Assembly (NCBI GenBank): GCA_964609675.1 | Contig: CAZSRX010000021.1 | Coordinates: forward strand, 373 to 64,372 | Direction of reading: 5' to 3' | Source of the DNA: an uncultured Bacteroidota bacterium | GTDB lineage: Bacteria > CLD3 > SB21 > JBBIRG01 | DNA: 64,000 nucleotides | Shown: positions 1-18,442 of the stretch, one piece after another | Layout: each line of letters opens with the position of its first letter | Position numbering within the stretch: the first letter of the stretch is position 1 | The notes under the pieces: model-generated | The model's input: only the letters and a program-made list of their open reading frames with translations | Databases searched by the model: none | What the model was told of the DNA's origin: nothing | Position numbers and translations under genes: made by a program

Positions 1-1753
1 TAGCCAGCCATTTTGTGTTCAGTTTAGGCGTCAGCGTAAAACGGAAAAACTTGCATTCCTCCACATTTTTTGTACCAGGCGCGTTTGCAGTAATTTCCAG
101 TTCAAAACAATCTTCCCTTTTAATCGGCATTCCCTCAGGTTCATTAATGGCGCCTGGTCTGAAATATAATTCGATTGTCGTTTTTTCTCCAGGGGCAATA
201 TTGGTGAATGACGGATCATCAGATAATCCGTAGATGTTGTCTCCTTTTGAAATATACATACCTGTCCTGAACAACTCGTCTTTAAACTGATTTCCTGTAG
301 TGTTGTGCCTGAGCCTGAAACAGCCTGATATTTTCTTCGGAAAAATCCTGTTACACCTGTTATGAATATCAAATTCTATCCGGTATTCTGTTTCTTCGTC
401 CCATTCGTAGGCTGGAATTTTTTCAGGAAACCCAACTATTTTCTGCAAATCCTGGTTACTATGGATAATCTCAAGAGAAACGGATGGCTTATATAAAAAG
501 AAAACAACCAGGTAAAGAAACAATAATATTCCTGCAATGATTATGGCCCATATCCACCACGGCATTCCGGGGGGCGGTTCAAAATTCAGTATGGCGTCCC
601 TCTCTGCGGACTGCACGGAGTAATAAAATGTGCCCTTCCAGTATGAATTCGGATTATAAACCATGTCAAATTTAAGAACCAAACCGACGCTCAGGTCCTC
701 TCCCCTGAAAATTGATGAAGAGATGTCGAACGGAGAAATGCTGTACATATTAGGATGGCCCTGAACCGGACGGAAATCAATGTCATAATTTGCTTCTGTT
801 CCCTTGTTCCTTAAATGAAAGGAAATGACCTTTTTCTGAATGTTATCCGGGTTGACGGGTTTCTGCCTGTTCTTTTCGCTGACATACATGCTGAAACTGA
901 AAGGATTCATCTTAAAAACAGACTGCTCCTGGTCCAGGGAAAGACTTTTCCTCTCGATTTCTATCACAGGTACATCCAAAAGGCGCAATACCGATACTTT
1001 AACAAGCATGGGATTAGCCGGATAAATGGGACGTTGTATGACAATTTCATAAACCGGTTCAAGCAGGAAGTTATTGTTGAAAAACTTCACCACTTCATTT
1101 TCGATATAATCAACTTTATTCCTGCTGTTGTCCCGGACAGCCAGTCGGTCGTTAAGCCCGATGCCTCCATCGCCGGAAACAAAGTCGCTGACCTGTATAA
1201 CAATTACCGTATCTGCGGATATTCTCTTATCCGAAAGATATGCGAGTGAAAAAGGGTATACATACCGTATCATCTGAAAATCATATTCCGGAAGTGATTG
1301 AATCCCTTTTAATATATCTGGAATCTCGTCGGCATTTTTTGCTTCCTGAGAGTGACGGAATACCGTATTTGAAAGACTGACAATGAAATCCGGGGAGGAT
1401 TTAGCTTTTGACTCACACAGCTGTATATCCTGTCCATTAATGCCGTGGGTCAGGAAATCCAGGCGGTCGTTCTTTTCTCTGTGATATAACGGCAGGTAAA
1501 GCTTAAAATGATCCATTACGTCCCGGTCTATACGGGCATTCTGGCTGATTTTTAATTCGGAGGATGTAAGCAATTGAATCAGGATGTCGTTAACTTCTCT
1601 ACGCATTTTACGGTCATGAGGCTGAAACTGGTTCCCGGATGAACCGGAAAGGTCATACAGGACAATAATATGCCGGTGAACCTGCTGAATCGGAGTTTGG
1701 GCCTGTAAAGCGCAAACTATGAAAGCGAATATAAGCAAAATGGCTTTCTTCAT
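1..1753 (-). CDS. vWA (von Willebrand factor A) domain protein with N-terminal signal peptide and C-proximal TM helix; start is complete at 1753, 3' end runs off the window
   Basis: Manual translation from the ATG at 1753 gives MKKAILLIFAFIVCALQAQTPIQQVHRHIIVLYDLSGSSGNQF..., i.e. a signal peptide followed by a DxSxS MIDAS motif. A later IQVSDFVSGDGG stretch is vWA-like, and a hydrophobic helix WWIWAIIIAGILLFLYLVVFFLY lies near residues 410-435. The frame is open to position 1. It is absent from the ORF track because there is no stop codon inside the window. Low GC. Confidence 0.6.
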   Translation of the reverse strand, partial: MKKAILLIFAFIVCALQAQTPIQQVHRHIIVLYDLSGSSGNQFQPHDRKMRREVNDILIQLLTSSELKISQNARIDRDVMDHFKLYLPLYHREKNDRLDFLTHGINGQDIQLCESKAKSSPDFIVSLSNTVFRHSQEAKNADEIPDILKGIQSLPEYDFQMIRYVYPFSLAYLSDKRISADTVIVIQVSDFVSGDGGIGLNDRLAVRDNSRNKVDYIENEVVKFFNNNFLLEPVYEIVIQRPIYPANPMLVKVSVLRLLDVPVIEIERKSLSLDQEQSVFKMNPFSFSMYVSEKNRQKPVNPDNIQKKVISFHLRNKGTEANYDIDFRPVQGHPNMYSISPFDISSSIFRGEDLSVGLVLKFDMVYNPNSYWKGTFYYSVQSAERDAILNFEPPPGMPWWIWAIIIAGILLFLYLVVFFLYKPSVSLEIIHSNQDLQKIVGFPEKIPAYEWDEETEYRIEFDIHNRCNRIFPKKISGCFRLRHNTTGNQFKDELFRTGMYISKGDNIYGLSDDPSFTNIAPGEKTTIELYFRPGAINEPEGMPIKREDCFELEITANAPGTKNVEECKFFRFTLTPKLNTKWLA

Positions 1754-1768
1754 TTTAACCTCCGGATT

Positions 1769-2416
1769 TTATCCTACTTTAATTCTTCCGATGGACTGTA
1801 TGGACCATTTATCCCCGTTTTTTCTGCAAAGGGCTGGTTTGATGAGTTGGGTGATTCTCAGGTCATTCTGACTTGACGCTACATCGACTTCAAATGATTT
1901 CTTAAAAACAAATGATGTGTTCTGATCGTAAGGAATGGCCCGTGTCGGCGCCAGCCAGTACAAGTCGTCCCACTGGAACAGAACAAAATAACCGGAAGCA
2001 TCGGCTTCAATCACGGGCTCTGAATCCTGACCGATTTCAGTGTGAAAAGCATCTAATTTAAGCGACACTTTTTTCGCGTCATGGTCAGTAATCCATTTTT
2101 TCAATTTTTCCCGGTCAGAGAGGCTTTGATTGAAAAGCTGAATAACCGAACTGATGTTTTTTTCTTTTTTTCCTTCAGTTTCCGGCAAAATGATTTCCGC
2201 TTTCTGCGCGGGAGATTTCTCATTGTCCGCAAACTTGCGTAATGCGGTTTTTAGTCGGTCTATATCCTCTTCTATCCCGGATAACCGGTCCTGAAAATCG
2301 TTTATTTTGCGGAATAATTGTCTTACTGATTTCCGCATTGAATAAAAAAGCCAGATAAACAAGATAATCATCACCGCATACGCGATAATGGCGATCAGCA
2401 TATTCGTAGTCAGCAT
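1769..2416 (-). CDS. hypothetical membrane-anchored protein: N-terminal TM helix, then a coiled-coil-like charged segment and a C-terminal globular part
   Basis: 215-aa ORF with hydrophobic N-terminus LIAIIAYAVMIILFIWLFY followed by a heptad-like charged region (RLSGIEEDIDRLKTALRKF). 15-nt gap to the downstream gene and 21-nt gap to the upstream gene, same strand. Confidence 0.5.
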   Translation of the reverse strand: MLTTNMLIAIIAYAVMIILFIWLFYSMRKSVRQLFRKINDFQDRLSGIEEDIDRLKTALRKFADNEKSPAQKAEIILPETEGKKEKNISSVIQLFNQSLSDREKLKKWITDHDAKKVSLKLDAFHTEIGQDSEPVIEADASGYFVLFQWDDLYWLAPTRAIPYDQNTSFVFKKSFEVDVASSQNDLRITQLIKPALCRKNGDKWSIQSIGRIKVG

Positions 2417-2437
2417 GGAGGCCCGCTTGTATAGGAT

Positions 2438-5400
2438 TTATGAAAAGGTTTTTCGGTCTTCTTGCATCTTTTTAATTAACGCCCTGGCGCCGATGATAAA
2501 CGGGGACTCCAGCACAATGTCGCTTTCTTTTCCCCTGAAAGCTCCCTGGATGGCGCTAAATACAACATTACGGTCAAATTTCAGAGGGTATATCAGCAAA
2601 TCATCACAGAAATTCAGGAATTCATGTTTGGCCATACCCAATTCGCAAAGTTCATTAAGAAGTTCAAATTTGGATAGGGTAGGATTTATCATATGGGCTT
2701 TATCGAGTAATATATAGTCGTTACGTGCTAGTTCATCCTTGTCCAGCAGGATTCCCGTTTCACCTACAATAACTGCTTTTGAATCTTTTTTAGTTATTTT
2801 AGAGACGGAGAATCCTTCCCTGATTTCATTGCCTATCTCGTTCTTCTGGTCCTTTGTGGATGAGATAGACTTCAGAAATTTGTTGTCTTCATGAATCAAT
2901 AGACCGCGGCATACTTCCTCTTTGGGTTCATCCGAAAGGCATATCGTTATTTGATCGGAACGGAGTTCTTCCCTGTATCCGATAGCGAAAGCCCCCCTGC
3001 CAAGTTTTTCATATACCTTACTGATATCCGGATACAGAAGCTTAAGTAGTTTGGAAGCATTGCCCCCGATGTGAACAGTTACGTTGCTAATTGCCGGATC
3101 CTGTTTGTAAAATAACTGGCCTAAAAAATAAAACATCGAAGCAAAACCCCAGAAGATGACGGAACGGCCGTACTTAACGGGCTCATCCTCCAGATTACCC
3201 GTAAAATAGGAAACAACATTTTCCCCTTTTTGGCTCATAATGTTGTTAATGATTGATCCGTTGTAAATACTGGAATTGGCGAACATATTCTGGATGCGCG
3301 CTGTCTTTACCTTACGCTCGGCCTCATTAGATCCGAAATTGGCGATGCTTACTATTTTTTTCATGAAAACATCAGATTTGCTGAACAAATCTTCAAACAG
3401 CAGAACACCGCCCATTCTGAATGAGAGGTTTTCTTTTATATAATTGCTTCCCTTTTTGCTGTCCCAAATAACCAGGTCTGTCGTTCCGCCCCCGATATCA
3501 ACGGAGACAAAATATTTACCGTTACCGGTTCCTACAATATCATCTTCCCTTTTTTCGGTACAGTACAAGGCGGTTGCGATTCCCTCATCGATGTCTATCT
3601 GTTTATCGTCAATATTTCTGAAATAACTGGTTTTGATATCAACACCGGTCGTTTCATAAACCGATTTTGCTGATTTTTCCCAGGTTGACTTGAAAATCGT
3701 TATCCGGTTTTTTTCAAAAGATAAGGGATAGCTCCATAAAATATGTACCTGCGACTTCTTCAGGTTATATTTAACATGATAAGCTATAAGCAGCATCAAC
3801 TGGGTGATGAACATATCGACCAACGGCATCATTTTCGGATCGGTTGTCCATTTAATCTGTGTGCGGATCTGCGAGGAAAACATTTTAGCGACATCGTCTT
3901 CCATTTTTTCAATATTCTGGAAAGGAATCATGCCATGAATAAACGAAATTCTCTGATTAGCGGCTTCTTTTTTGTAAAGTAAAGCCGTTGTTATCGGAAA
4001 TATGAAAGAATCCGATATGAAATTAGTTGACCGTAATACATTCGCATAAGGCGTGTTGTTGTTAAATACTTCCAGAGGCTTCAGATCATTGATTTCCATC
4101 CGTTTTTTGACCAACTGGCCGTCCAGTAAAAATACATTTGTATTGGAAGTGCCGAAATCGATGCTGACCTCAACAGATGTATTTTCTGTCCTTTCCGCGT
4201 TCGGAGCCTCTATCGCGAATATCCCGAGCGGCTCGCCTTCTCCCTGCAGGGCTTCTTTTTTTCCGTCAGGCAAATCCCTGACCGGAACGGATTGCAGTTC
4301 AATAATGGATGGAAACGATTTCAGACAGTAAACGGACAATTTATCCTCTACTCTGCTGGCAACAACATCAGGTTCATCTTTCATAGAGAAGACCTGAAGC
4401 CGTACATTTGTCTGTATATCTTCCGAATGTGAAAAGAGGCAATAATACCGGTTCCATGCAGGATCATTATATCTCGGCCAGATATCCAGCAGAGGTATAT
4501 TGTCATACTCAATAATATCTTTCGCGTAAAAATCTTTATGCAACGAATAACCGGCACCGCTTTTGTTCAGCTGAATGCGTACTTTAAACCGGTTCCCTGA
4601 ACTGCCCGGATCTTCCAGTTCTTCAATGAAACATTTATCATAATCAATCTCGTATCCCTTTTCTTTCAGGAAACGAAGCCTGACAGGAAAAGTGAATACG
4701 GGTTCCGTCCTGCCGCTTTTCCATTTAAGAGGTTTGATATATTGCGTGTTTATATTTTGGAGCTTGATTAATTTTTCGACAAATACCTGTTTTATGTCTA
4801 TGGGTAATTTGGCTTTTCTGGCGAATGTTGAGTAAAAGGAATTTTCACTTATATTGTTGTAGATAGAAAAAACAGCAGGAGATGCATGAGCAATAATTTT
4901 CTTCTCAATTTCTGCTTTCCATTTTTCTAAAAGCGAACATATTTCATGTCTTTTGTACTCTTTATTATCTGCCGGTTGAAATTGTTTAATTCGGGTTATG
5001 GTTTCATTAATCCAGTTATTTAAGATTGAAAGCATTGTTTCATCGACAGCAAATTTCGGGCATTTTAAAGGATCGGTAAATTTGAATTTTTGTGTTTCTT
5101 CGTTCTTAATGACCCAGGTAAAAGTGTCTGACGGGGCAGGTGCAGCATAGTCAGCCCCCGTAAAAACTAATGTTAAGGGCGAAAAACCGCCAAGAACTCT
5201 TTTCTTTCCTCCGGCAATATGCTTTATTAAATAAAACTCCTCTTCAGGCCAGTATTGATCATTAGGTTTCAGTTTTTTTACTATTCCTGTAAATCCGTCA
5301 TTCGCTAACTTTACTTTTATTATTTCAATTTTTATATCCAATATATCGCTGAAACATAATAATGCCAGAAGTCCTCTCCATTCATCCGTCACAAACTCAT

Positions 5401-5677
5401 GAGCAGGATGCTTAAACCCTTTATTATCCTTCTCAATTGCAAAATACAAAGCCTTATAGAATAGGTATGGACGAGCCCAGACTGTGGGTATTGAGGAAAT
5501 CATATCCGGGGTTTTATCCGTATCATGGATCATGATATCTCTTCCAAGGTTTTCGAGTTGGGAATCTCGGAAACCAACCCACTTACCGGGCTCGGGACTG
5601 TACTGCATACTATTGTTAACACAGACCACTTCCGGTAAAAAGGCTTTAGTCCCTGTCGGTTTTTCATTGTTTGGCAT
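2438..5677 (-). CDS. large (1079 aa) protein with an internal Hsp70/actin-fold (ASKHA) ATPase core
   Basis: Phosphate-1-like motif SIDFGTSNTNVF (compare Hsp70 IDLGTTNS) near residue 505 and phosphate-2-like motif VSVDIGGGTTDLVIWD (compare Hsp70 DLGGGTFD) near residue 735. About 500 aa of N-terminal and 180 aa of C-terminal sequence are unassigned. No signal peptide. Low GC. Confidence 0.6.
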   Translation of the reverse strand: MPNNEKPTGTKAFLPEVVCVNNSMQYSPEPGKWVGFRDSQLENLGRDIMIHDTDKTPDMISSIPTVWARPYLFYKALYFAIEKDNKGFKHPAHEFVTDEWRGLLALLCFSDILDIKIEIIKVKLANDGFTGIVKKLKPNDQYWPEEEFYLIKHIAGGKKRVLGGFSPLTLVFTGADYAAPAPSDTFTWVIKNEETQKFKFTDPLKCPKFAVDETMLSILNNWINETITRIKQFQPADNKEYKRHEICSLLEKWKAEIEKKIIAHASPAVFSIYNNISENSFYSTFARKAKLPIDIKQVFVEKLIKLQNINTQYIKPLKWKSGRTEPVFTFPVRLRFLKEKGYEIDYDKCFIEELEDPGSSGNRFKVRIQLNKSGAGYSLHKDFYAKDIIEYDNIPLLDIWPRYNDPAWNRYYCLFSHSEDIQTNVRLQVFSMKDEPDVVASRVEDKLSVYCLKSFPSIIELQSVPVRDLPDGKKEALQGEGEPLGIFAIEAPNAERTENTSVEVSIDFGTSNTNVFLLDGQLVKKRMEINDLKPLEVFNNNTPYANVLRSTNFISDSFIFPITTALLYKKEAANQRISFIHGMIPFQNIEKMEDDVAKMFSSQIRTQIKWTTDPKMMPLVDMFITQLMLLIAYHVKYNLKKSQVHILWSYPLSFEKNRITIFKSTWEKSAKSVYETTGVDIKTSYFRNIDDKQIDIDEGIATALYCTEKREDDIVGTGNGKYFVSVDIGGGTTDLVIWDSKKGSNYIKENLSFRMGGVLLFEDLFSKSDVFMKKIVSIANFGSNEAERKVKTARIQNMFANSSIYNGSIINNIMSQKGENVVSYFTGNLEDEPVKYGRSVIFWGFASMFYFLGQLFYKQDPAISNVTVHIGGNASKLLKLLYPDISKVYEKLGRGAFAIGYREELRSDQITICLSDEPKEEVCRGLLIHEDNKFLKSISSTKDQKNEIGNEIREGFSVSKITKKDSKAVIVGETGILLDKDELARNDYILLDKAHMINPTLSKFELLNELCELGMAKHEFLNFCDDLLIYPLKFDRNVVFSAIQGAFRGKESDIVLESPFIIGARALIKKMQEDRKTFS

Positions 5678-5696
5678 ATATTTTCTCCGGTATTAA

Positions 5697-7202
5697 CTAA
5701 TTGATGTTATAAACTTTCTGAACAAAATTATAGCTTGCCTGATAGAAAATATTCACTAATTTGGCGGAAGCAGAAGAAAGGCCGCTTTCCACTTTGACTT
5801 TTTTCAGGCATTCAATAAATTTTGTATAATCAGGAGTCAAACCACTCTCATTGAAAAGTACGGATGAAAAATCAGATTCCACATTGCGGCGTGTGTTGAT
5901 AAGTCTGACTACGGGATTGTCAAACCGATGGGTATCCCTCAGCCATTCAAAAAAGGAATAATGTCCTTCCCTCTGGAAAAAATCTCTAACGATAGCCAAA
6001 TATTGTTTTTCCCTGTCAGCTGTTAAATCATCATTTTTCTTGAAGAAATCCCTGATAACTTTCATTTCACCGGGAAATTGAGTAAACTGATTAGTGTTCT
6101 TGTAAAAATAGAGATAGACAGTTCCCATAATAGCTGCTGTCGCCATTTTTATCTTTATTTCGTCCCTTTCAAAGGAGTTTGACGGCATATCGTTCCAGGT
6201 CACCTCATTATTATTTTCACGCCCGCAATAACAATATTCTATTTTGGATTCGCTTCTTTTAGGTAGCGGCTGAGTGTCTTTAAAAAAAGCCATAGCGGAT
6301 AAGGCGGCAATTATTTCAATATAGTGAGGATGATTTGTCTGGCTTTCCCCTCCCACCGCAAATTTTCCAAGTGCCGTATCTTTAATGCTTTTTTCACCAA
6401 GTACATAAATTCTGTTATAAACACCCTTGATAAAAATATCATAATTCATCAGCGCGGCCTTAGTGCTGGAAATAAAATTTTCACTCTTCACAAATAAGCC
6501 GTCAATTTTCTTATCGGGCGTTGAAAAAGTGAAATAAGGCAGCATAATCATACCGCCGATGTAAATATTTTCTCTGTTTTCTGTAATATCAAGGATAAGT
6601 TTGGGTAAATTCGGGAATCCTGCCGCTCCGGTGCCTCCAAAGATGGAACCGCAGATAAATATTCTGATATCTGATGCTTTATTCTCCTTTATCAGTCTCA
6701 TAGTCTGGCCGATAGGGCTCTGTAAAACTTCAGGTTCGGCATTATCATAATCGTTAAAAATTTTAGAGCTTGCCATAACCACAGACCCAATCGCGGGATG
6801 ACCCCGGAAGCCCTGGTTGAGCTTAGTGCATCTCTCATCTTCGGTCAAAAGCAGATTACATAAATCCTGTTCGTCTTCAGACAGCATGTTATATTTTATG
6901 AGATCATGGAGGGATTCATCCCTTTTAACAGGCGACCAGTGCCAGTTGTACTCCTGGTGCTCATCGATTGGACCTTTTATAATAGGAGAGAAAAAAGGGA
7001 CATTCCCATAACCCATACCCCTGCACTTCTGATATAAATTCAGCAGTTTCATGGTCCTGCCAAGATTACCGTTGCCTTTATCCGGGTCAATGAGTAAAAC
7101 GTGCGTCTCATCAGCGCCCAATCCGCAGGCAGATAGATACGCAAAGGCTTCTGTCATTTGAATGCCTCGGCCGCCTATTCCGATCAATATATTGATAGCC
7201 AT
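5697..7202 (-). CDS. tubulin/FtsZ-superfamily GTPase-like protein
   Basis: N-terminal NILIGIGGRGIQ resembles the FtsZ T1 glycine loop (GxGGGGxN). GSIFGGTGAAGFP resembles the tubulin/FtsZ T4 signature GGGTG[ST]G. MNYDIF is a possible T7-like NxDxx element. 501 aa, no signal peptide or TM helix. Low GC. Confidence 0.55.
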   Translation of the reverse strand: MAINILIGIGGRGIQMTEAFAYLSACGLGADETHVLLIDPDKGNGNLGRTMKLLNLYQKCRGMGYGNVPFFSPIIKGPIDEHQEYNWHWSPVKRDESLHDLIKYNMLSEDEQDLCNLLLTEDERCTKLNQGFRGHPAIGSVVMASSKIFNDYDNAEPEVLQSPIGQTMRLIKENKASDIRIFICGSIFGGTGAAGFPNLPKLILDITENRENIYIGGMIMLPYFTFSTPDKKIDGLFVKSENFISSTKAALMNYDIFIKGVYNRIYVLGEKSIKDTALGKFAVGGESQTNHPHYIEIIAALSAMAFFKDTQPLPKRSESKIEYCYCGRENNNEVTWNDMPSNSFERDEIKIKMATAAIMGTVYLYFYKNTNQFTQFPGEMKVIRDFFKKNDDLTADREKQYLAIVRDFFQREGHYSFFEWLRDTHRFDNPVVRLINTRRNVESDFSSVLFNESGLTPDYTKFIECLKKVKVESGLSSASAKLVNIFYQASYNFVQKVYNIN

Positions 7203-7233
7203 AAATAAATGCTCCCTTTATTTATATTAATTT

Positions 7234-7722
7234 CTATCCGATATGTACTTTGCAGGGTATCCTAAGCCAGGGAATTACTTTTGTTGTAAAAGAAGGTCGA
7301 AAGATATGTGACAGTGACCAATAAAGCAAAATATATTCAATTAAGGCTGTATATATCGCATAAAAAGTATTCGGCAGCGTTAATAAAGCCTCAAAACCCA
7401 GGTACTCCTCTATAGCAGGATAAGAATGAGTTGGTAAACTTAAACAACGCAGTAAGACTATAACAGCTATCAATACAATACCAATCAACAAAAAAAGAAA
7501 CCAGCCCTTCAGCGGACGATAAGCCTCCGTTATATCTCTTGGTACTAATTTCTTTTTTACGACATAATACATTACTAGGATAGTGATGATTGCAATAAAA
7601 ATTACTATCAAAAAATTATCAGTCAGAAATTCGGACCATTTCTGGGCGGTATAGTTCATGGGCTGTTTCCCGATACCTATCAACTGCAAGAGTTTATGCA
7701 ACATATCTTTAACTCCTTTCAA
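7234..7722 (-). CDS. small integral membrane protein (2-3 predicted TM helices)
   Basis: 162-aa ORF with hydrophobic segments FLIVIFIAIITILVMYYVV, WFLFLLIGIVLIAVIVLL and AIYTALIEYILLYW. 2-nt gap to the upstream vWA gene. Confidence 0.5.
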   Translation of the reverse strand: MKGVKDMLHKLLQLIGIGKQPMNYTAQKWSEFLTDNFLIVIFIAIITILVMYYVVKKKLVPRDITEAYRPLKGWFLFLLIGIVLIAVIVLLRCLSLPTHSYPAIEEYLGFEALLTLPNTFYAIYTALIEYILLYWSLSHIFRPSFTTKVIPWLRIPCKVHIG

Positions 7723-7724
7723 TA

Positions 7725-8972
7725 TTAATAAATCGCAAGATAAAACCGACCTATGATTTGCGGGTTAATTTCAGCAGACAAAACAAGCAGTTTTTTTGTG
7801 AAATCATATAAATAAGGCGTTTTCGATCCCGGATTTTTCGCGTTATCGGTTGACCATTCTTTTATCCATTCAGGGTATACAACAGTGGGGCTGAATGATG
7901 CCTCACAGTAAAAAGCATACCAGAGTTTTTTCATGATCGGAGCGAGTTGCAGTTTTATCTGTGTTTCAAATTCACCATTTTCATTTATCCTGAATGCTTC
8001 AACCGATTTGATTTTTACAAGCTTGTCTTCTTTTTCTGCCGGTCTGTCAGATTTTATTATTTTTTTTAGAACATTAAGAGATACGTTACAAATCTGGGAA
8101 TCTGTGTTTGTCGTATAAAAAATCTGATAATCTTTAATAAACTTTCCTTTAACCGATACATTCAGATAACCAGTGCTTTGCCCTTCAAATTCAATGATTT
8201 TATAATTCTTAACTCCGGTTTCAGCCGGAACCGTCAATAACGATGAGCTTTCTTTATCGACTTTCAAGACAACTTCCGATTTCTCAACCGCCTCAGAACC
8301 GGAGACAAACAGATATTCGGTTTTCAGGCCGGGAATTGTTCTGGCATCCTCTGTGATGATGTTCACCAGTTTCTGACTATGTGATCGATGGCCGAAAACA
8401 AACATGTAAAATTGCTGGGTTTTTGTCTGAAAACCCAGCAGATAAAAATCATTCTTACTTAGTATCCATTTTGATATTTCCTCAACGACACCCAGTATAT
8501 CTGGTTTAAAATCGATCAAAGGAATGCCGTCGGTTATAATTATATTGATGGAACTGGTATTCAGAGTATCCCCGACAAAGAGGCGCATCACTTTCTTGAT
8601 ATCAGTATCCCCCCTATATTTTACAGGATTTTCTATTTCATCGATCAGGCGGTCATCGGATAAATTCTGTATATCAGCATCAAAACTATGGTATCTTCTT
8701 TGGCATTTGACATAGGATGTTTTAAGAGTCAGCGCGAATTTTGTCATCAAGCTGATATACATTTTATCCCGGGCATAACTGACCATAGAACCTGAACGGT
8801 CAAAATATATGCTTATATCTTCAAGTTCTTTCACAGCCACTGAATTTTTATCAAAAATTTCTTGAACAGTTTTCCATTCCGGAGGATCATCTTTGCATGA
8901 GTTAAAAAAGAAACCGGTCATCATCAAAAATATCACGAAATATTTTATTACTACCTTTTTTGTATTAATCAT
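7725..8972 (-). CDS. vWA domain lipoprotein (first gene of the low-GC operon)
   Basis: Lipoprotein-like N-terminus MINTKKVVIKYFVIFLMMTGFFFNSC (lipobox FNSC). Complete MIDAS triad: DRSGS (DxSxS), GDTDI (T) and IIITDG (D). RBS GGAGAAAGG lies 3 nt upstream. Confidence 0.65.
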   Translation of the reverse strand: MINTKKVVIKYFVIFLMMTGFFFNSCKDDPPEWKTVQEIFDKNSVAVKELEDISIYFDRSGSMVSYARDKMYISLMTKFALTLKTSYVKCQRRYHSFDADIQNLSDDRLIDEIENPVKYRGDTDIKKVMRLFVGDTLNTSSINIIITDGIPLIDFKPDILGVVEEISKWILSKNDFYLLGFQTKTQQFYMFVFGHRSHSQKLVNIITEDARTIPGLKTEYLFVSGSEAVEKSEVVLKVDKESSSLLTVPAETGVKNYKIIEFEGQSTGYLNVSVKGKFIKDYQIFYTTNTDSQICNVSLNVLKKIIKSDRPAEKEDKLVKIKSVEAFRINENGEFETQIKLQLAPIMKKLWYAFYCEASFSPTVVYPEWIKEWSTDNAKNPGSKTPYLYDFTKKLLVLSAEINPQIIGRFYLAIY

Positions 8973-8975
8973 TTA

Positions 8976-8984
8976 CCTTTCTCC
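8976..8984 (-). promoter_or_regulatory. Shine-Dalgarno (GGAGAAAGG) for the vWA lipoprotein gene; the AT-rich 8985-9280 region upstream presumably carries the operon promoter
   Basis: The reverse complement of 8973-8984 reads GGAGAAAGGTAA immediately before the ATG at 8972. Upstream DNA is more than 75% AT with no convincing ORF. Confidence 0.4.
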
Positions 8985-9280
8985 AACAAGATTAAATTTT
9001 CATTAAAAATATTTATTAAAAAAAACCTCTTGATTTTGATATAAAGACATTATTTGATGATTTATATTTAGATATGACTCAATATGCAAAAAAAGAACCC
9101 TTTTTAAATAAAGGCCCCTCTAAAAATTACCTTCTTTTGACAAAAAATAAGCATAAACATTTTAATATTCAAATTATTTTACTCTTCCAACCTCTTTATT
9201 GCGTCTTAATCCGTTCTTTTAGCCGTAAAACGCATATTTTAAGAGAAAAAGCTGATCAAGTATTTCATGACCGGCTCCTA

Positions 9281-9329
9281 TTTAAAAAAAGTTAAAAATC
9301 TCCTGTAGGATACGGTTTATAGGAGATTT
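9281..9329 (-). terminator. rho-independent terminator downstream of sucD
   Basis: Inverted repeat AAATCTCCT...AGGAGATTT at 9296-9329. On the minus strand it is followed by TTAACTTTTTTT (plus-strand A-run 9283-9290), just after the sucD stop at 9353. Confidence 0.4.
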
Positions 9330-9352
9330 ATAATCGGCTTATTTTCTGTGTG

Positions 9353-10333
9353 TTATTTTTTCTTGCTTTTTTTCGTGCTATTTTTTGGGGCGGTCTTTTT
9401 CACGGATTTTTTTGGCGCCGGTTTGTGCGGATACTTTTTTTCGAGTATCTGCTTGACGGTTATGCCGATATCGGCGGGGCTTTTGACTACGTGAATGCCG
9501 GCGGCGGCGAGGGCTTTCATTTTTTCCGCCGCGGTGCCTTTACCACCGCTGATAATCGCGCCGGCGTGGCCCATGCGGCGGCCCGGGGGCGCGGTCTGGC
9601 CGGCGATGAACGCGACGACCGGTTTTTTGAAATGCTTTTTAATCCACGCGGCCGCTTCTTCTTCCGCCGTGCCGCCGATCTCGCCGATCATCACAACCGC
9701 GTCGGTGCCGTCATCTTCGGCAAACAACTGAATGGCGTCAATAAATCGCGTGCCGATTACGGGATCGCCGCCGATACCGATGCAGGTGGACTGCCCGATT
9801 TTCAGCGTCGTCAGCTGATGGACGGCTTCGTACGTCAATGTGCCCGAGCGTGAGATAACGCCCACACGTCCCGGCCGGTGAATGAACGCCGGCATGATGC
9901 CGACTTTGCATTTGCCCGGCGAAATGATCCCCGGACAGTTCGGCCCGATAAGCCGGCAGTTTTTATCTTTTAAGAAATCATACACCTTAACCATGTCCTT
10001 GGTTGGTATCCCCTCGGTGATACAGACAATCAGACTAATGCCGGCTTCAGCGGCCTCTAAAATCGCGTCCGCCCCAAAGGCCGGAGGAACAAAAATCACC
10101 GACGTGTTCGCCCTCGTCGCCTTGATCGCTTCCGCCACCGTGTTAAACACCGGCACGGCATACTTCAGTTTGTCCGTATCATTCCCTTTATACTTCATGC
10201 CGCCCTTGCCGGGTGTAACGCCGCCGACGACATAGTTGCCGTACTGCGTCATCTGGCTGGTGTGGAATGTGCCTTCTTTTCCGGTTATCCCCTGCACAAT
10301 CAGCCGGGTTTTTTTGTCAACAAGAATGCTCAT
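9353..10333 (-). CDS. sucD: succinyl-CoA synthetase (ADP-forming) alpha subunit with an unusual lysine-rich C-terminal tail
   Basis: [28 protein letters not shown]...[26 protein letters not shown]...[14 protein letters not shown] are canonical SucD CoA-binding and ligase motifs. About 35 extra C-terminal residues: [28 protein letters not shown]. Confidence 0.85.
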
Positions 10334-10936: not shown

Positions 10937-12385
10937 TCACAAATACGACGGCGGCGTAACCTCATAAATAAAAAACAGACCGTCATATTGATGGATTAAA
11001 ATCATCTGCTCCGCGTTGAGGCCCCAGCTTTTGGCCGTGATTGGATTAAATAACCATGCGTTTCCTTCCGACAGTTTTTTTCTGGATATGTCCAGAAAGC
11101 AAAACCGCCGGTCCGACCGGTAAAAGATGGATTCCAGACTACCTGAGGTTGCCGGCGAAATATCATAAACAACGCGATGGTTCGTCGCTGCCCGGCCGCG
11201 ATAGATATAGAAGCCGACCGTGTACATTTCCGCGCGATGATTGTCGCTCAGCCAATGGCCCATATTCTTGAATGCGTAATCGCTGCCGATGACTTCGTCA
11301 TACCGGTTACATACATGCGCATTGTGAGCCCAGACGATGATTTTCTTGCCGGGAAAAAGCGTATCGATGAGGAAATCAATGTTTTCGGCCATGCTACGGT
11401 CCCTGATAACCGACGCGGCCTGATAGTTCTGCTGGGCTTGAAGGACAAACAGATCCACTGCCGCCGGCGTCATGTGCGCTTCCTGCGTTAAAACGCGGAT
11501 CAGACCGCTCTCCTGCGGATGCAGTGATTGTAGCGCCGTTTTTCCTGTTTCCAGAAACTGATACAGAGTGTCATAAAATTGCTTTATTGTATTCTGGTTG
11601 CTTATCAGATAACCGATATCGGCGCCCTGCGTGAACATGGAATCCTGCCGGTACACGGCGTCGGCATAAACGGCATCGAGCGGCTGAATGATCCGCTTGT
11701 AATCATAGGCCCGCCCGAAGTAGCTGTAGGTGGAGCTCATCTGGATGTCAAAACCGGCAACATCGAGCGGCCGCGACGACGTACGCGTTTCCTTAAGGTA
11801 TTCAAACAGCGGGAGGAGTTCTTCCGTATGCCACACCGGAAACACCGACCGCTTCATGTTCATCAGGGGCGTTTCCTTCAACACGTTGGTATTCGCGCTG
11901 AAACAATCATAAAGGCCGCTCTCAAAAGCGATGACACCGAAATCGCATTGTTCGTGAAGAAATTTTATGAGGCGCACCTTGGCCATGCTGAATTGTGCGA
12001 CACCGTGACCGCTTTCGCCCAGCAGGACGATACGCTTGCCTTGAAAATACGTTTTCAGACAATCCAAATCGTTAAAATGCGAAGAGGTCAGGGAGCGGAC
12101 CGGCGCCGCGTTGGTTTTAATCCACGCGCTCCAGACAGCGTTTTCCGGCGGCGCGCCGGAATCGGGAGGAATCTGAAGTTCCTTATCGGTCAGTAAATCC
12201 GACGGGTAATTGTCGAAGCCATCGGAATGGTTATCGCAGGAACCTGATGACACCATTAAAATGAGCAGGCCTAATTGACGCCAACGACAAAGCGCGGTCA
12301 ATGGCTTTTGCATAACACGAATACGATAATCCATGAACGGTAATCGCTGTATTAAAAAATAACGACGCCAATCAATCTCAGACAT
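10937..12385 (-). CDS. erythromycin esterase-family protein (putative lipoprotein)
   Basis: LLGESGHGVAQF...VIAFESGLYD resembles the Ere family GEATHGT motif region. Hydrophobic leader LGLLILMVSSGSC. The start may be a downstream Met. The annotated ATG overlaps the pgsA stop by 8 nt. Confidence 0.5.
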   Translation of the reverse strand: MSEIDWRRYFLIQRLPFMDYRIRVMQKPLTALCRWRQLGLLILMVSSGSCDNHSDGFDNYPSDLLTDKELQIPPDSGAPPENAVWSAWIKTNAAPVRSLTSSHFNDLDCLKTYFQGKRIVLLGESGHGVAQFSMAKVRLIKFLHEQCDFGVIAFESGLYDCFSANTNVLKETPLMNMKRSVFPVWHTEELLPLFEYLKETRTSSRPLDVAGFDIQMSSTYSYFGRAYDYKRIIQPLDAVYADAVYRQDSMFTQGADIGYLISNQNTIKQFYDTLYQFLETGKTALQSLHPQESGLIRVLTQEAHMTPAAVDLFVLQAQQNYQAASVIRDRSMAENIDFLIDTLFPGKKIIVWAHNAHVCNRYDEVIGSDYAFKNMGHWLSDNHRAEMYTVGFYIYRGRAATNHRVVYDISPATSGSLESIFYRSDRRFCFLDISRKKLSEGNAWLFNPITAKSWGLNAEQMILIHQYDGLFFIYEVTPPSYL

Positions 12386-13031: not shown

Positions 13032-13130
13032 AACACCTATATTAGCGACCTTATTAAGGTAAGTTAAAAAAGGATTTAAGACAAGTATTTTTTTGCAAAC
13101 GCAATTTACTTACGCCTAAACAGGGGCCCT

Positions 13131-13862
13131 ATGATCTGGCAGTTTTTAGACACCGGTTTGCATACCGGAGCGTATAACATGGCGCTGGACGAACAACTGG
13201 CGCGCGAAGTGGGAGCGGGCACGCGCCCGTCCGTACTGCGGTTTTTTCAGTGGCAACCGTACTGCATCTCCCTTGGCAAGCATCAGCGGATGGATGATAT
13301 CGACACCGCGCGGGCGCAAGCGGAAGGTATTGACGTGGTATACCGGCCCACCGGCGGCCGGGCCATCCTGCACGCGGAGGAACTGACGTACAGTGTCGTG
13401 TTTAAAAATGAAATTACCGGTACGGTGGAAGAGACCTACCGGCTTATTAGTGAAGCGCTGGTACAGGGTCTGCGGGCCGTCGGCGTGGATGCGGCTATGA
13501 ATCCCGCTCAGCCGAACTTCCGCCAATGGTATACGCAGCCCGTGTCCAAGCTCTGTTTTTCAAGCTCCGCGCGTCATGAAATTCAGGTTGACGGCCGCAA
13601 ACTGGTCGGCAGCGCCCAGCGACGGCTTTCCGGCGCCGTGCTCCAGCACGGGTCGATCCTGCTGGGATCGTTTCACCGCCGTCTGCCGGAATTCCTCAAC
13701 GTACCCGAACCGGCCAAAATCATCATGCGCCAGATGATGGACGAAAAAACCATCGAAATCGGGCAAATAACTTCCGTGAATCTGGAAACTCTGAAAACCG
13801 CCATACGGCAAGCGTTTGCGGAAGTATTCTCTATTGAATTTCACGAAGCGGAGGCGCCGTAA
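13131..13862 (+). CDS. lipoate-protein ligase / BPL-LPL catalytic domain family protein
   Basis: YNMALDEQLAREV...YRPTGGRAILHAEELTY resembles the LplA/LipB motif RRxSGGGAVxHD. 243 aa. Confidence 0.6.
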   Translation: MIWQFLDTGLHTGAYNMALDEQLAREVGAGTRPSVLRFFQWQPYCISLGKHQRMDDIDTARAQAEGIDVVYRPTGGRAILHAEELTYSVVFKNEITGTVEETYRLISEALVQGLRAVGVDAAMNPAQPNFRQWYTQPVSKLCFSSSARHEIQVDGRKLVGSAQRRLSGAVLQHGSILLGSFHRRLPEFLNVPEPAKIIMRQMMDEKTIEIGQITSVNLETLKTAIRQAFAEVFSIEFHEAEAP

Positions 13863-13866
13863 CCTT

Positions 13867-14322
13867 ATGGACGCTCCGGAAAGACCGCGCTATACCATCT
13901 ATACGGATGGCGCCTGTAAAAGCAATCCCGGACCCGGAGGCTGGGCGGCAATCATTCTCTCCGATTCGTCCCCCATACGCGAGGAATTGCAGATATCCGG
14001 TCATTGCGCATCCACGACCAACAATATCATGGAAATGACGGCCGTTATCCGCGCGCTGGAGAGCCTTCCGCAGCCGGCGCGCGTGGTGGTATACAGCGAC
14101 AGCGCTTATATTGTCAACGCGTTTCGGGAGCGATGGTTCGATCAGTGGATCCGTAACGGTTGGAAAACGAGCGGCCGCAAACCGGTCAAAAACCGCGCTT
14201 TATGGGAAAAGCTTCTGGATTTATGCGCCGTTCACACCGTACAGTTTATCAAAGTGGCCGGACACACCGGAGATCCTTATAATGAGCGGGCCGATCGCCT
14301 GGCCAATCAGGCGATACCATGA
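13867..14322 (+). CDS. rnhA: ribonuclease HI
   Basis: MDAPERPRYTIYTDGACKSNPGPGGWAAII...MELTAVIRALESL...VYSDSAYIVNAF...KVAGHTGDPYNERADRLANQA shows the canonical RNase H catalytic DEDD region. Start chosen at the ATG at 13867 rather than the ORF-track start, which overlaps the previous gene. Confidence 0.85.
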   Translation: MDAPERPRYTIYTDGACKSNPGPGGWAAIILSDSSPIREELQISGHCASTTNNIMEMTAVIRALESLPQPARVVVYSDSAYIVNAFRERWFDQWIRNGWKTSGRKPVKNRALWEKLLDLCAVHTVQFIKVAGHTGDPYNERADRLANQAIP

Positions 14323-15176
14323 AAGCGGTTTCCGTAATACATTATTTCGAATATTTTCTGCTCCGTTTAGTACGTGCCTTTTTGTGGTTTTTCCCGTTGC
14401 GCGTTATCTCGGCAACAGGCGCGTTTGCCGGACTTATCTTTTATACGCTGGGAATTCGTAAAGCCGTCGCCCGTGATAATATTATTCTAGCCGGAATCTG
14501 CAAAGATTCCAGGCATCTTAAACAACTGCTGAAAAGCAACTATAAAAATCTCGGCCGGACATTTACGGAGTTACTGATGAATGACCGCCTACCTATAAAG
14601 GAAGGACGTAATTTCAGGTGGGACATACCTTCCGATTTCCTGACGGTAATAAGGCGCGGCGCTATTTTGATTTCCGGTCACATCGGCAGTTGGGAATTGA
14701 TGGGCCAAGCGCTGGTGCAATATGGCGTTAAACTCGCGGTTGTCGTGCGACGGCAGGCCAATCCGCTCACGGATCGTTACATCAACCGCATCCGCCAACG
14801 TTGCGGCATGGACGTCGTCTATGACGAGGAACTGTTTAAACTGCGGCGACATCTCGCCGACGGGCATGCGATAGCCCTTCTCGCAGACCAGGACTACGGA
14901 AAACCGGGCGAGCCGGTTGTTTTTTTCGGCCGGCCGTGCCGCGCGCCTGCCGGTCCCGGCCGTCTGGCTGTCCGTCTGAAAATTCCGGTCTATTTATGTA
15001 CCTCCTACAGAAAAAATGGAGTTGATTTTACTTTCTCCATTAAACCGGTTCCTTTTTCTGACGAGGCGGATATCGGCGAAATAACCTCCCGGTATACAGC
15101 CATGCTTGAAACCCTCATTCGGAAACATCCGGATCAGTGGCTGTGGCAGCACAAGCGGTGGAAATTAGCGAAATAA
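14319..15176 (+). CDS. lipid A biosynthesis (Kdo2-lipid IVA) acyltransferase, LpxL/HtrB family
   Basis: N-terminal TM helix, then HIGSWELMG (HX4E-like acyltransferase motif) and a late-acyltransferase-like length of 285 aa. ATGA overlap with rnhA. Confidence 0.7.
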   Translation: MKAVSVIHYFEYFLLRLVRAFLWFFPLRVISATGAFAGLIFYTLGIRKAVARDNIILAGICKDSRHLKQLLKSNYKNLGRTFTELLMNDRLPIKEGRNFRWDIPSDFLTVIRRGAILISGHIGSWELMGQALVQYGVKLAVVVRRQANPLTDRYINRIRQRCGMDVVYDEELFKLRRHLADGHAIALLADQDYGKPGEPVVFFGRPCRAPAGPGRLAVRLKIPVYLCTSYRKNGVDFTFSIKPVPFSDEADIGEITSRYTAMLETLIRKHPDQWLWQHKRWKLAK

Positions 15177-16648: not shown

Positions 16649-17376
16649 AGTCAAGGAAGTAAATTATACAAAAAAAATTGAAATAATCAAATGAAATTAT
16701 TTTTGATATAAAAAACGCTGTCTGTTCGCCGAGCCACATTCGCAGGTTACAACGAAAAGCATACTGTAAAGCATGCGCCGTTTCATCAAATAGTTACTTT
16801 TTTATTAAGACTGACACCATCCTACGCAAGTCCGTGGGGCCTCAAAGAAAACACCATCGATAGATGCCTGAACGTTGTACGGTTTCTTTAAAATATAATC
16901 TCTTCGCGCAGTAAAAAAATTAACGCCTTTGAAATATTGACGGCCCTGCTTGCGTAAAATCAAATGCGATTCATTACGGAGGGCTGGCATGCACTTACAA
17001 CGGTTACGTCTGCTCCAGCGATGAAGCGGATTTCCTGGTGTGTTATGAAAAGAAAACCATCGAACAACTGCTGGCCGCGCTTTCGTAACGCCTTTCCGGT
17101 TTTGCTTCTGAATTAGGTATGGAGAACTTTTCTGATGAACAAGGCGCTATCCGCATTAATAATGCCTTTCCGATTAACCTATGCACATGGATATCCGGCT
17201 ATCGTTATAAATATTTGTTATCGTTTGATAAATATTTGGAAACGGCCCATTATTGTCTGCCGTATCTCCATACGGCTCTGCATGTCCGGCTTTAGAAAAA
17301 TTCCCTTCGCGAGCAGGACGCCTTTGATGGTATCCAACTTAAAGAACTGATTGGGCCCAACCGCCGTTTATTTTAT

Positions 17377-18423: not shown

Positions 18424-18442
18424 CTATTTAAAAGGCGTTTAT

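Follow-up and report, generated by a model that had tools for sequence, protein, structure and literature searches.

A mobile gene cassette that pairs a tubulin-like GTPase with a giant actin-fold ATPase and envelope proteins in a low-GC island of a Bacteroidota bacterium

What is encoded by the AT-rich segment at one end of a 64,000-nt stretch of DNA from an uncultured Bacteroidota bacterium (the whole stretch is called the window below), and what might its genes do together? The initial annotation described a low-GC island carrying a single operon of six genes, probably acquired horizontally. Calculated over 500-nt windows, the GC content is 0.32-0.44 at positions 1-9500, 0.59 at 9501-10000 and ~0.46-0.57 (about 0.50) in the remainder, which upholds the compositional contrast proposed for 1-9350 and places the island ~10 points under host GC. 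Its right edge is at ~9350, adjoining a sucD-like gene (9353-10333). The six minus-strand ORFs are as originally described, with gaps of 2, 31, 19, 21, and 14 nt, and form a single co-directional operon (Table 1). The ribosome-binding site of the lead gene is also confirmed, with a GGAG Shine-Dalgarno sequence 6-9 nt 5' of the first ATG of g1. The AT-rich promoter zone proposed upstream of g1, on the other hand, corresponds to AT-richness only, because a scan for sigma-70 promoters and terminators found no more sites than in shuffled sequence.

Table 1. Features of the island and its right border (positions in the window)
Feature	Position	Strand	Description
g1	7725-8972	-	415 aa, predicted lipoprotein with MIDAS-like motif
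g2	7234-7722	-	small polytopic membrane protein with hydrophobic segments; 162 aa (TTG start) or 156 aa (ATG at 7704)
g3	5697-7202	-	501 aa, divergent tubulin/FtsZ-like GTPase; N-terminal GTP-binding domain
g4	2438-5677	-	1079 aa, cytoplasmic; C-terminal ~580 aa form an ASKHA ATPase
g5	1769-2416	-	215 aa; TM residues 1-19, coiled coil, novel ~90-aa C-terminal domain (g5C)
g6	<1-1754	-	first 584 of 1141 codons, cut by window edge
AT-rich leader/intergenic region	8973..9352	-	between sucD terminator hairpin and g1; GC 0.32
sucD internal piece, 105 nt	9617..9721	-	direct repeat, 100% identical, on contig L112 (exact-match mapping)

The island extends to the left of the window and is larger than initially described. 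Metagenome contigs with 100% identity to the window over 9300 nt carry the remaining part of g6 and four more co-directional genes, giving an operon of at least ten genes, all of them low-GC, that reaches at least 17 kb. The further members (g7-g10) are membrane or coiled-coil proteins, and no integrase domain was found among g1-g10. A protein with a Fib_succ_major domain is encoded in the same island. The second copy of the 105-nt sucD piece lies 373 nt past the tenth island gene on contig L112 and is a candidate attachment-site repeat; it may be longer, because the contig ends there. The best explanation is that the window captures the promoter-proximal end of an island of at least 17 kb that was acquired horizontally and encodes one variant of an unnamed family of mobile cassettes.

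The assignment of g3 to the tubulin/FtsZ-like proteins stands, both by an above-threshold Pfam match and by structure-based confirmation. It has the Rossmann-like GTPase-domain fold common to tubulin, FtsZ, CetZ, and TubZ, and scores 29.1 bits against Pfam Tubulin_2 (PF13809; cut-off 27), the match covering only positions 148-210 of the 356 in the profile. Many g3 homologues, which are mostly ~460-540 aa long (120 homologues listed), have a precomputed PF13809 match. Motifs of the T1, T3, T4, and T5 type are conserved; in the loops GIGGRG (residues 8-13) and SIFGGTGAAG (residues 186-195), G10, G11, G13, and S186-G195 vary little or not at all across 28 homologues. The C-terminal half is helical and non-canonical, with no long coiled coil in the model, and neither a canonical C-terminal activation domain nor its T7 loop is recognisable. 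In tubulin/FtsZ filaments, it is the T7 loop of this domain that completes the active site of the neighbouring subunit. Polymerisation of g3 is therefore not assured.

The initial description of g4 as an Hsp70/actin-fold ATPase was right about the fold, which lies in the C-terminal half of the protein, and wrong where it specified Hsp70. The three motifs of the ASKHA (actin/MreB/FtsA/Hsp70) fold are intact, i.e. DFGTSNT (phosphate-1), DIGGGTTD (phosphate-2), and GGNAS (adenosine), and g4 displays the duplicated RNase-H-like fold. MreB, FtsA, and actin-like filament proteins match it best, and sub-threshold matches of g4 and its homologues are to MreB, FtsA, Ppx, and EutA. Membership of the Hsp70 family was rejected, since the HSP70 profile (PF00012) matches neither g4 nor any of its nine homologues. 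The N-terminal ~500 aa are conserved and match nothing. This ASKHA partner is represented by 3312 sequences at 50% identity. The Pfam scores of both g3 and g4 of the window are marginal, and the confirmation of their folds by structure is independent of Pfam.

The remaining products are exported or membrane proteins, two of which, g1 and g6, had been called vWA proteins. In g1, the DRSGS (residues 58-62) and IIITDG (residues 144-149) sequences have a vWA-like spacing, a likeness at motif level only, and Cys26, D58, S62, M63, and D148 are invariant in an alignment of 37 family members. Beyond the DxSxS and TDG motifs, every search came back negative: Pfam VWA matches none of the 37 members, the family profile finds nothing among PDB sequences up to E=10, hhalign of the family with the CMG2 vWA domain (identical to PDB 1SHU) gives a 0.2% probability, and g1-like genes in four further loci have no precomputed Pfam match. 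The vWA call for g6 likewise goes back to a motif, DLSGS (residues 34-38): Pfam VWA does not match the protein, and hhalign, with only two sequences of the region to compare, does not link it to the g1 family. The membrane topology predicted for the small proteins is supported by their hydrophobic segments. The g2 protein is the positional equivalent of a ~155-aa four-helix membrane protein whose gene immediately precedes that of the tubulin-like protein in most loci; the two families of such upstream proteins are mutually homologous (hhalign, 96% probability), and g2 matches them at 70%.

The g5C domain is without a match in Pfam or PDB. It occurs in 97 ORFs in 38 loci, including cyanobacterial arrays of 2-7 copies; such diversified paralogue arrays fit a variable sensor or adaptor layer. 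The g6 protein, present in full (1141 aa) on contigs L001 and L112, consists of a signal peptide, an external region, a TM helix (residues ~395-420), and a cytoplasmic tail. Past the window edge, this tail is an Hsp70 nucleotide-binding domain (NBD, residues 584-957), with E-values of 9.1e-22 against Pfam HSP70 (PF00012, profile positions 3-351 of 599) and 2.9e-14 against the DnaK NBD in PDB. The match is limited to the NBD part of the HSP70 profile, and no substrate-binding domain was found.

Is this gene set a local accident? Recurrence of the block elsewhere, the point on which the initial annotation had staked its own refutation, was found in strength, with a conserved gene order in dozens of loci. 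Relatives of g3 occur in the genomes of at least 539 species. A g4 gene is directly downstream of g3 in 52 of 61 informative loci, and a small membrane protein is encoded immediately before g3 in at least 52 of 69. Of the 69 loci that reach far enough upstream, 49 have a homologue of the g1 lipoprotein. Across at least six phyla, the genes follow one another in the same succession (lipoprotein, small membrane protein, tubulin-like protein, 1100-aa ASKHA protein), the groups covered being Bacteroidota, Ignavibacteria, Cyanobacteria, Negativicutes, Acidobacteria, Poribacteria, and Gemmatimonadota. In one Bacteroidota MAG, g1-g7 are collinear at 29-37% identity. The invariant core of the family comprises the g1 lipoprotein, the g2 membrane protein, g3, the ~1100-aa g4, and at least one membrane-anchored g5C coiled-coil protein, to which the variant in the window adds g6, with its external MIDAS-like region and Hsp70 NBD, and g7-g10. 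Chance juxtaposition or spurious folds, for which the marginal Pfam values might be invoked, have a practically nil probability and are refuted by this synteny, kept in several phyla, together with the confirmation of both folds by structure.

The cassette is also mobile. It is found on a mobilizable 47.5-kb cyanobacterial plasmid and, in gut contigs, immediately behind genes for a relaxase and a tyrosine integrase; together with the sucD direct repeat, these findings bear out the horizontal acquisition suspected from composition. Deviating GC is not a general property of the family: of 41 loci, 15 have a core with lower GC than the flank and 8 a core with higher GC. Most copies are chromosomal, sequenced phage genomes yielded no relatives, and the cassette, which is common in filamentous cyanobacteria, looks long-resident in many of them. 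A reduced form in Selenomonadaceae, with the membrane protein and the tubulin-like gene and without g4, is found in LytR-CpsA-Psr cell-envelope loci.

It is a reasonable inference, as the initial annotation had it, that the products form an envelope-spanning assembly. As to its role, the company that the cassette keeps is suggestive. Pairs of ZorA/ZorB-like genes end the operon in 5 of 81 loci, and also in locus L087, which is adjoined by a BamHI restriction-modification system, and in two cyanobacteria g3 and g4 are separated by an inserted iSTAND-MoxR-vWA(CoxE) module. By raw counts, the ZorAB and MoxR-vWA links concern a minority of loci. None of the six core proteins matches a PADLOC defence model, and no nuclease, toxin, protease, or other recognisable effector was found in the cassette. 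These associations suggest, without proving it, a defence role at the cell envelope. From the observed folds, motifs, topology, gene order, mobility, and conflict-module linkage, we infer how it might work: the exported parts would register an event at the envelope, e.g. attack by a phage or another invading element, the membrane proteins would pass the signal inward, and g3 and g4, as a pair resembling FtsZ-FtsA, would assemble in a nucleotide-dependent manner at the inner face of the membrane, where the assembly may block, contain, or abort the invasion, or remodel the membrane. A mobile envelope cassette in which sensing is relayed to a g3/g4 assembly directed against invasion is, as a whole, the best explanation that we can offer, and we hold it with a little less than even confidence.

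Its main competitor, which we consider unlikely yet far from negligible, is an accessory machine for membrane remodelling or envelope biogenesis, which is how Makarova & Koonin interpreted the FtsZl1-vWA operons. Membrane, vesicles, or sites of cell-wall synthesis would be shaped or moved by the NTPases, and a link of the machine to peptidoglycan or the outer membrane would be provided by the lipoprotein and the OmpA/MotAB-like partners. Every component other than the NTPases is indeed a membrane or exported protein, several lineages have OmpA/MotB-like and MotA/ExbB-like partners as FtsZl1 operons do, and SH3_3 and TonB_C domains occur in accessory proteins. The frequency of the cassette in filamentous cyanobacteria agrees with such a role, and the location of the g2-g3 pair in Selenomonadaceae, next to LytR-CpsA-Psr genes, speaks more for envelope biogenesis than for defence. 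However, the patchy distribution, plasmid carriage, integrase and relaxase neighbours, strong GC deviation in the window, inserted iSTAND-MoxR-vWA module, and variable paralogue arrays are found more typically in conflict systems than in housekeeping machinery.

It is improbable that the cassette is a secretion, adhesion, or surface device whose cytoplasmic NTPases power the export or display of MIDAS-like proteins. Although there are exported proteins with metal-site-like motifs, the Fib_succ_major-domain protein of the island, and in g6 an Hsp70 domain fused to a transmembrane protein, we found no secretin, channel-forming component, or secretion-type ATPase, and the exported parts have no verified adhesin fold. 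In addition, it is the cytoplasmic pair that is constant, whereas the accessory genes differ widely between lineages. We regard as very improbable a module for maintenance of mobile elements, in which the tubulin-like and actin-like proteins would act in segregation or positioning in the manner of TubZRC or ParMRC. Neither a small DNA-binding adaptor of the TubR/ParR type nor centromere-like repeats are associated with the cassette, exported or membrane proteins account for half of its conserved genes, and g4, which has a conserved extra domain, is about three times as large as ParM. The prevalence of chromosomal copies and the lack of relatives in sequenced phage genomes weigh against it as well.

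If the defence reading is correct, the cassette may even be the founding example of an undescribed class of cytoskeleton-based systems in prokaryotes, a possibility on the doubtful side: an envelope-wired, on-demand immune or exclusion device built on g3 and g4 and carried by mobile elements, with modular Hsp70, ZorAB-like, and MoxR-vWA-iSTAND add-ons and two domains without relatives. The family is large, spanning many phyla and mobile elements that include those of gut Bacteroidales, and its compact five-gene core can be moved into a model host to test 'cytoskeletal' NTPases as immune effectors. The two conserved domains without relatives, the N-terminal half of g4 and g5C, are candidates for new folds or activities.

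How does the cassette compare with known systems? No paper describing it was found in the literature searched. Among the closest descriptions are the FtsZl1-vWA operons, which are predicted to function in membrane remodelling (Makarova & Koonin 2010, PMC2875224). Like these operons, the cassette encodes a divergent Tubulin_2 GTPase lacking the canonical C-terminal domain, exported or membrane partners, and, in some lineages, MotA/ExbB-like and OmpA-like partners. FtsZl1 proteins, however, are ~900-1200 aa long, with an FtsZ-like domain, a long coiled coil, and an alpha-helical C-terminal domain, and their partner is a vWA protein recognisable by Pfam/COG, which g1 is not. The ~1100-aa ASKHA protein, the four-helix membrane protein, and g5C are absent from the families listed for FtsZl1 operons. 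In Trichodesmium, FtsZl1 (Tery_1707, at 2.60 Mb) and a copy of the cassette (at 1.85-1.87 Mb) are different loci. The size of g3, its lack of a coiled coil, and this separate locus led us to reject it as an FtsZl1 in the sense of these authors.

The other close description is that of the DO-GTPase/GAP1-N2 conflict systems with tubulin or HSP70 components, whose 'cytoskeletal' NTPases are predicted to be conflict or immune components (Kaur, Burroughs, Iyer & Aravind 2020, PMC7159879). Tubulin- and HSP70-family NTPases, putative vWA and membrane proteins, and predicted nucleotide-dependent assemblies near the membrane are common to both. These systems, however, are defined by one or two TRAFAC P-loop GTPases and GAP1, whereas g1-g7 contain no Walker A motif and have no GTPase-family match. 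Moreover, their tubulin and HSP70 themes are described as non-overlapping and limited to Firmicutes and Actinobacteria, whereas here both types of NTPase occur together, in other phyla. These systems, and a DnaK-like gene beside FtsZl1 and vWA genes in Magnetospirillum (PMC2875224, Additional file 5), also qualify the statement in the initial annotation that pointed to no reported pairing with a large Hsp70-fold protein. The cassette thus fails the defining features of both the FtsZl1-vWA and the tubulin/HSP70 GTPase systems.

Likeness to Zorya resides in relatives from Acidobacteria, Poribacteria, and one JGI contig, which end with ZorA-like (MotA/ExbB plus long coiled-coil tail) and ZorB-like OmpA proteins. 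The ZorA match in these relatives falls largely in the coiled-coil tail. Unlike Zorya, the window has neither ZorA nor ZorB as assessed by PADLOC, and no ZorC/D/E-type effector was found anywhere. Similarly, the two cyanobacterial relatives have a complete module, with its CoxE-type vWA, of the iSTAND-MoxR-vWA ternary systems (Kaur et al. 2020), whereas the window and 79 of 81 loci lack it; no adaptor domain is common to the iSTAND protein and the extended g4. Finally, in the cassette as in FtsZ-FtsA, a tubulin-fold GTPase is encoded next to an actin-fold ATPase, both of which would act at the cytoplasmic membrane, and FtsA is among the best structural matches of g4. Unlike FtsZ-FtsA, the pair has no membership of these families at sequence level, the FtsZ C-terminal domain is missing from g3, g4 is three times as large and has an N-terminal half of unknown fold, and the cassette is accessory and mobile, outside any division cluster. 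If our reading holds, a tubulin-like/actin-like pair outside division and plasmid segregation would represent a new use of the bacterial cytoskeleton.

The initial annotation had described an AT-rich island beside a GC-richer flank, made up of six minus-strand ORFs separated by gaps of 2-31 nt, and both parts of this description hold. As assessed by sliding-window analysis, GC content is 0.32-0.44 at positions 1-9500, 0.59 at 9501-10000, and ∼0.46-0.57 across the remaining 54 kb. ORF calls gave six genes, named g1 to g6 in transcription order, with successive intergenic gaps of 2, 31, 19, 21, and 14 nt. The ribosome-binding site ascribed to the lead gene was recovered (a GGAG site upstream of the g1 ATG), but its AT-rich promoter zone was not, since a scan for sigma-70 promoters and terminators returned no more sites than expected from shuffled sequence. 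Rfam and tRNA scans identified nothing but a pair of distant tRNA-Leu genes, leaving the island boundary without a tRNA, and a megablast search of the segment against E. coli genomes gave no match.

Island genes, their neighbor, and two recurrent locus types (L numbers denote loci or contigs carrying relatives or identical copies)
Feature	Position	Strand	Length or content
g1	7725-8972	minus	415 aa
g2	7234-7722	minus	162 aa
g3	5697-7202	minus	501 aa
g4	2438-5677	minus	1079 aa
g5	1769-2416	minus	215 aa
g6	<1-1754	minus	cut by window edge
g7	after g6	co-directional	700 aa: signal peptide, TM helix, coiled coil
g8	after g7	co-directional	322 aa: zinc ribbon, coiled coil, Fib_succ_major domain
g9	after g8	co-directional	317 aa: zinc-ribbon N terminus same as g8
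g10	after g9	co-directional	504 aa
sucD-like gene	9353-10333		succinyl-CoA ligase alpha subunit; island's neighbor
ZorAB-like operon ends	L060, L067, L069, L076, L082, about 15.5-18.7 kb; L087, 18556-21470		
Reduced Selenomonadaceae loci	L046, L049, L050, L053, L054, L056, L059, L063, L065, around 9.5-11.4 kb		

Extension of the contig to the left of the window edge, which the initial annotation had proposed, yielded further members. The same genes occur on three metagenome contigs, the longest of which is identical to the window across all 9300 nt compared. The identical contig completes g6, which is 1141 aa long, and four more genes follow (g7-g10), all low in GC. On L112, a 17,180-nt JGI contig carrying the island out to g10, g8 and g9 (13126-15166) have a near-identical ∼90-aa N-terminal zinc-ribbon region (MILDCPICKSRIK...CPSCDNELSF) and part ways at the C terminus, where g8 has a Fib_succ_major domain and g9 a TM/helical region. 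The last 105 nt of this contig (17076-17180), starting 373 nt past g10, are 100% identical to window positions 9721-9617, which lie inside sucD, and stand in direct orientation to them. Because the contig ends in an exact internal sucD piece, this suggests either that a direct repeat derived from the 3' part of sucD flanks the island or that the contig is a circular form with a sucD piece. A flanking repeat of the 3' part would suggest integration into the 3' end of the gene, after which such a repeat is expected; searches of g1-g10 gave no integrase domain. The sucD-like product has an unusual lysine-rich C-terminal tail, and a terminator with a clean hairpin follows it at about 9290-9330. 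Just outside the island, a 482-aa ORF (10937-12385) shows a weak match to the erythromycin esterase family (EreD, 5.7e-13), with a score well under the curated cut-off.

Relatives of g3, the tubulin/FtsZ-like GTPase, were sought by scanning one genome per species, and 80 loci were fetched and analyzed by ORF clustering and iterated profiles. At this sampling, at least 539 genomes encode a g3 relative. Of the 61 loci with sufficient sequence, 52 have, immediately downstream of g3, a ∼1100-aa homologue of g4, the ASKHA (actin/MreB/FtsA/Hsp70-fold) ATPase. Immediately upstream of g3, at least 52 of 69 loci encode a ∼155-aa four-helix membrane protein, and 49 of the 69 have a g1-type lipoprotein. 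The upstream membrane proteins form two sequence families that are homologous to each other (96% hhalign probability), and g2 aligns with these families at 70%. Hosts of this cassette, i.e. the recurring g1-g2-g3-g4(-g5) set, include Chitinophagaceae and other Bacteroidota, Ignavibacteria, many cyanobacteria, Selenomonadaceae, Pyrinomonadaceae, Poribacteria, and Longimicrobium. In one Bacteroidota MAG (L004), g1-g7 are collinear with the window at 29-37% identity, and upstream of its cassette there is a homologue of g8. The neighborhoods of g3 relatives thus bear out the recurrence of the gene block across phyla.

Two side observations concern the g3 family. Antisense ORFs of 90-130 aa inside g3 cluster across 28-33 loci (L005-L083; e.g. 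L005 10300-10731), and are most likely a by-product of strong sense-frame conservation rather than genes. Close g3 homologues are attributed by their labels to MAGs of Thermoplasmata and of Promethearchaeota (P0112), which may reflect a binning error or transfer into archaea; the cassette of the Thermoplasmata-labelled protein, on an 8.4-kb Logan contig (L086), is of the Chitinophagaceae type, with the order g1-g2-g3-g4-Hsp70.

The original fold calls for the two NTPases, tubulin-like for g3 and actin/Hsp70-like for g4, were judged to be right. Single-sequence searches of both proteins against the PDB gave nothing significant. Because the structure prediction for g4 reached a pLDDT of only 54.6, its N-terminal half was left uninterpreted. 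A genuine Hsp70 nucleotide-binding domain lies past the window edge, at residues 584-957 of g6 (Pfam, 9.1e-22; DnaK, 2.9e-14), cytoplasmic to a TM helix at ∼395-420.

The calling of g1 and g6 as von Willebrand A (vWA) proteins is, by comparison, unproven: motifs are present and every similarity test was negative. g1 displays DRSGS at residues 58-62 and IIITDG at 144-149, and its lipobox Cys26 as well as D58, S62, M63, and D148 are invariant in 37 homologues, a motif spacing that fits a MIDAS site. None of the 37 family members matched Pfam VWA models, the family profile had no match in the PDB, and hhalign gave 0.2% probability for g1 against the vWA domain of CMG2, a reference first verified to be identical to PDB 1SHU. 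Precomputed Pfam annotations held nothing on g1-like genes in other loci, and a search of all fetched loci for a canonical vWA protein that could seed a profile was negative. The external region of g6 contains only DLSGS and lacks profile support, and the g6 N-terminal region did not match g1 by hhalign.

Downstream of the core, gene content varies by lineage. Cyanobacteria, Negativicutes, Acidobacteria, and Poribacteria encode one to several proteins per locus ending in g5C, the ∼90-aa C-terminal domain of g5. This domain occurs in 97 ORFs from 38 loci, with as many as seven copies in one locus, alongside zinc ribbons, coiled coils, and TM helices, and has no match in Pfam or the PDB. Cyanobacterial loci also show tandem arrays of two to six paralogues (L019 14913-21284, L040 14941-21305, L045 14812-17758), carrying g5C at the end or as internal repeats with variable zinc-ribbon, coiled-coil, low-complexity, and TM parts. 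In Chitinophagaceae, Ignavibacteria, and Calditrichaceae loci, Hsp70 is a protein of its own (∼515 aa; 1e-82), accompanied by a large protein that has TM helices at its C terminus and in some cases SH3_3 or TonB_C domains. In seven to nine Selenomonadaceae loci, the cassette is reduced to the membrane protein and a 460-aa tubulin-like gene, the ASKHA partner being absent, and several of these loci adjoin LytR-CpsA-Psr cell-envelope genes. In L027, a 635-aa ORF downstream of the cassette (16834-18741) duplicates part of the ASKHA gene, with 71% identity to residues 280-703 of g4 from the same locus.

Conserved and mobile, the cassette forms a system of several components. tblastn placed the family on six plasmid records, among them a mobilizable 47.5-kb Gloeothece plasmid encoding g1, g2, a "tubulin-like domain-containing protein," an 1118-aa protein, and two g5C proteins, all annotated as hypothetical apart from the tubulin-like one. 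Sequenced phage genomes contained no cassette relatives. In IMG/VR, 23 contigs carry the family, with g4 directly downstream in 19. Both contigs examined (L090 2932-5946, L095 4630-5856) encode a MobA/VirD2 relaxase and a Bacteroidetes-type tyrosine integrase directly before the cassette, by which these two "viral" contigs look like integrative mobilizable elements rather than phages. Among 41 loci, the core has a lower GC than its flank in 15 and a higher GC in 8; because there is no general deviation, low GC is a property of the copy in the window genome, not of the family, and this lack was counted against a mobility or conflict context.

Several loci carry or adjoin modules akin to conflict systems. 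A ZorA-like and ZorB-like pair closes the operon in 5 of 81 loci (Pyrinomonadaceae and Poribacteria) and on one JGI contig (L087), the former protein consisting of MotA/ExbB with a long coiled-coil tail (PADLOC ZorA3, 7e-17) and the latter being an OmpA protein (9.5e-17). A BamHI restriction-modification system also adjoins L087. In Phormidium sp. OSCR (L055 11575-15544) and Westiellopsis (L012 12276-14790), an iSTAND-MoxR-vWA(CoxE) module, whose MoxR is an AAA_5 protein, is inserted between g3 and g4. g4 in both loci has a conserved extra N-terminal region of ∼250 aa without detected relatives, and a search for an adaptor domain that this lengthened g4 shares with the iSTAND protein found none. 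The iSTAND gene of the Westiellopsis insertion looks degraded. No PADLOC model was matched by the core proteins, which counts against a conflict link, and NCBIfam gave nothing usable on the six window proteins. On this genomic context, we tentatively rank first an envelope-linked conflict or exclusion function, which is somewhat short of an even bet; envelope remodelling, ranked second on context too, appears rather unlikely.

Membrane remodelling was proposed for FtsZl1, ∼1000-aa tubulin-like proteins with coiled coils whose genes adjoin vWA, GTPase, kinase, and OmpA genes (Makarova & Koonin 2010, PMC2875224). In contrast, the g3 family is half that size and lacks a coiled coil, and in Trichodesmium its locus differs from the listed FtsZl1 locus. 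Conflict functions were predicted for DO-GTPase/GAP1 systems of Firmicutes and Actinobacteria, which include tubulin with two vWA genes, or HSP70 with GrpE, as non-overlapping themes (Kaur et al. 2020, PMC7159879), whereas the window operon has no P-loop GTPase and joins both NTPase types. The Tubulin_2 group was set aside as divergent "FtsZ-like" by Santana-Molina et al. 2023. The literature searched contained no description of the g1-g5 cassette and no anti-phage tubulin-like/actin-like system. Taken together, the cassette is best placed in the loose group of membrane-associated NTPase systems with tubulin-like, vWA, and Hsp70 components, within which its own marks are its defining core and two domains without known relatives.
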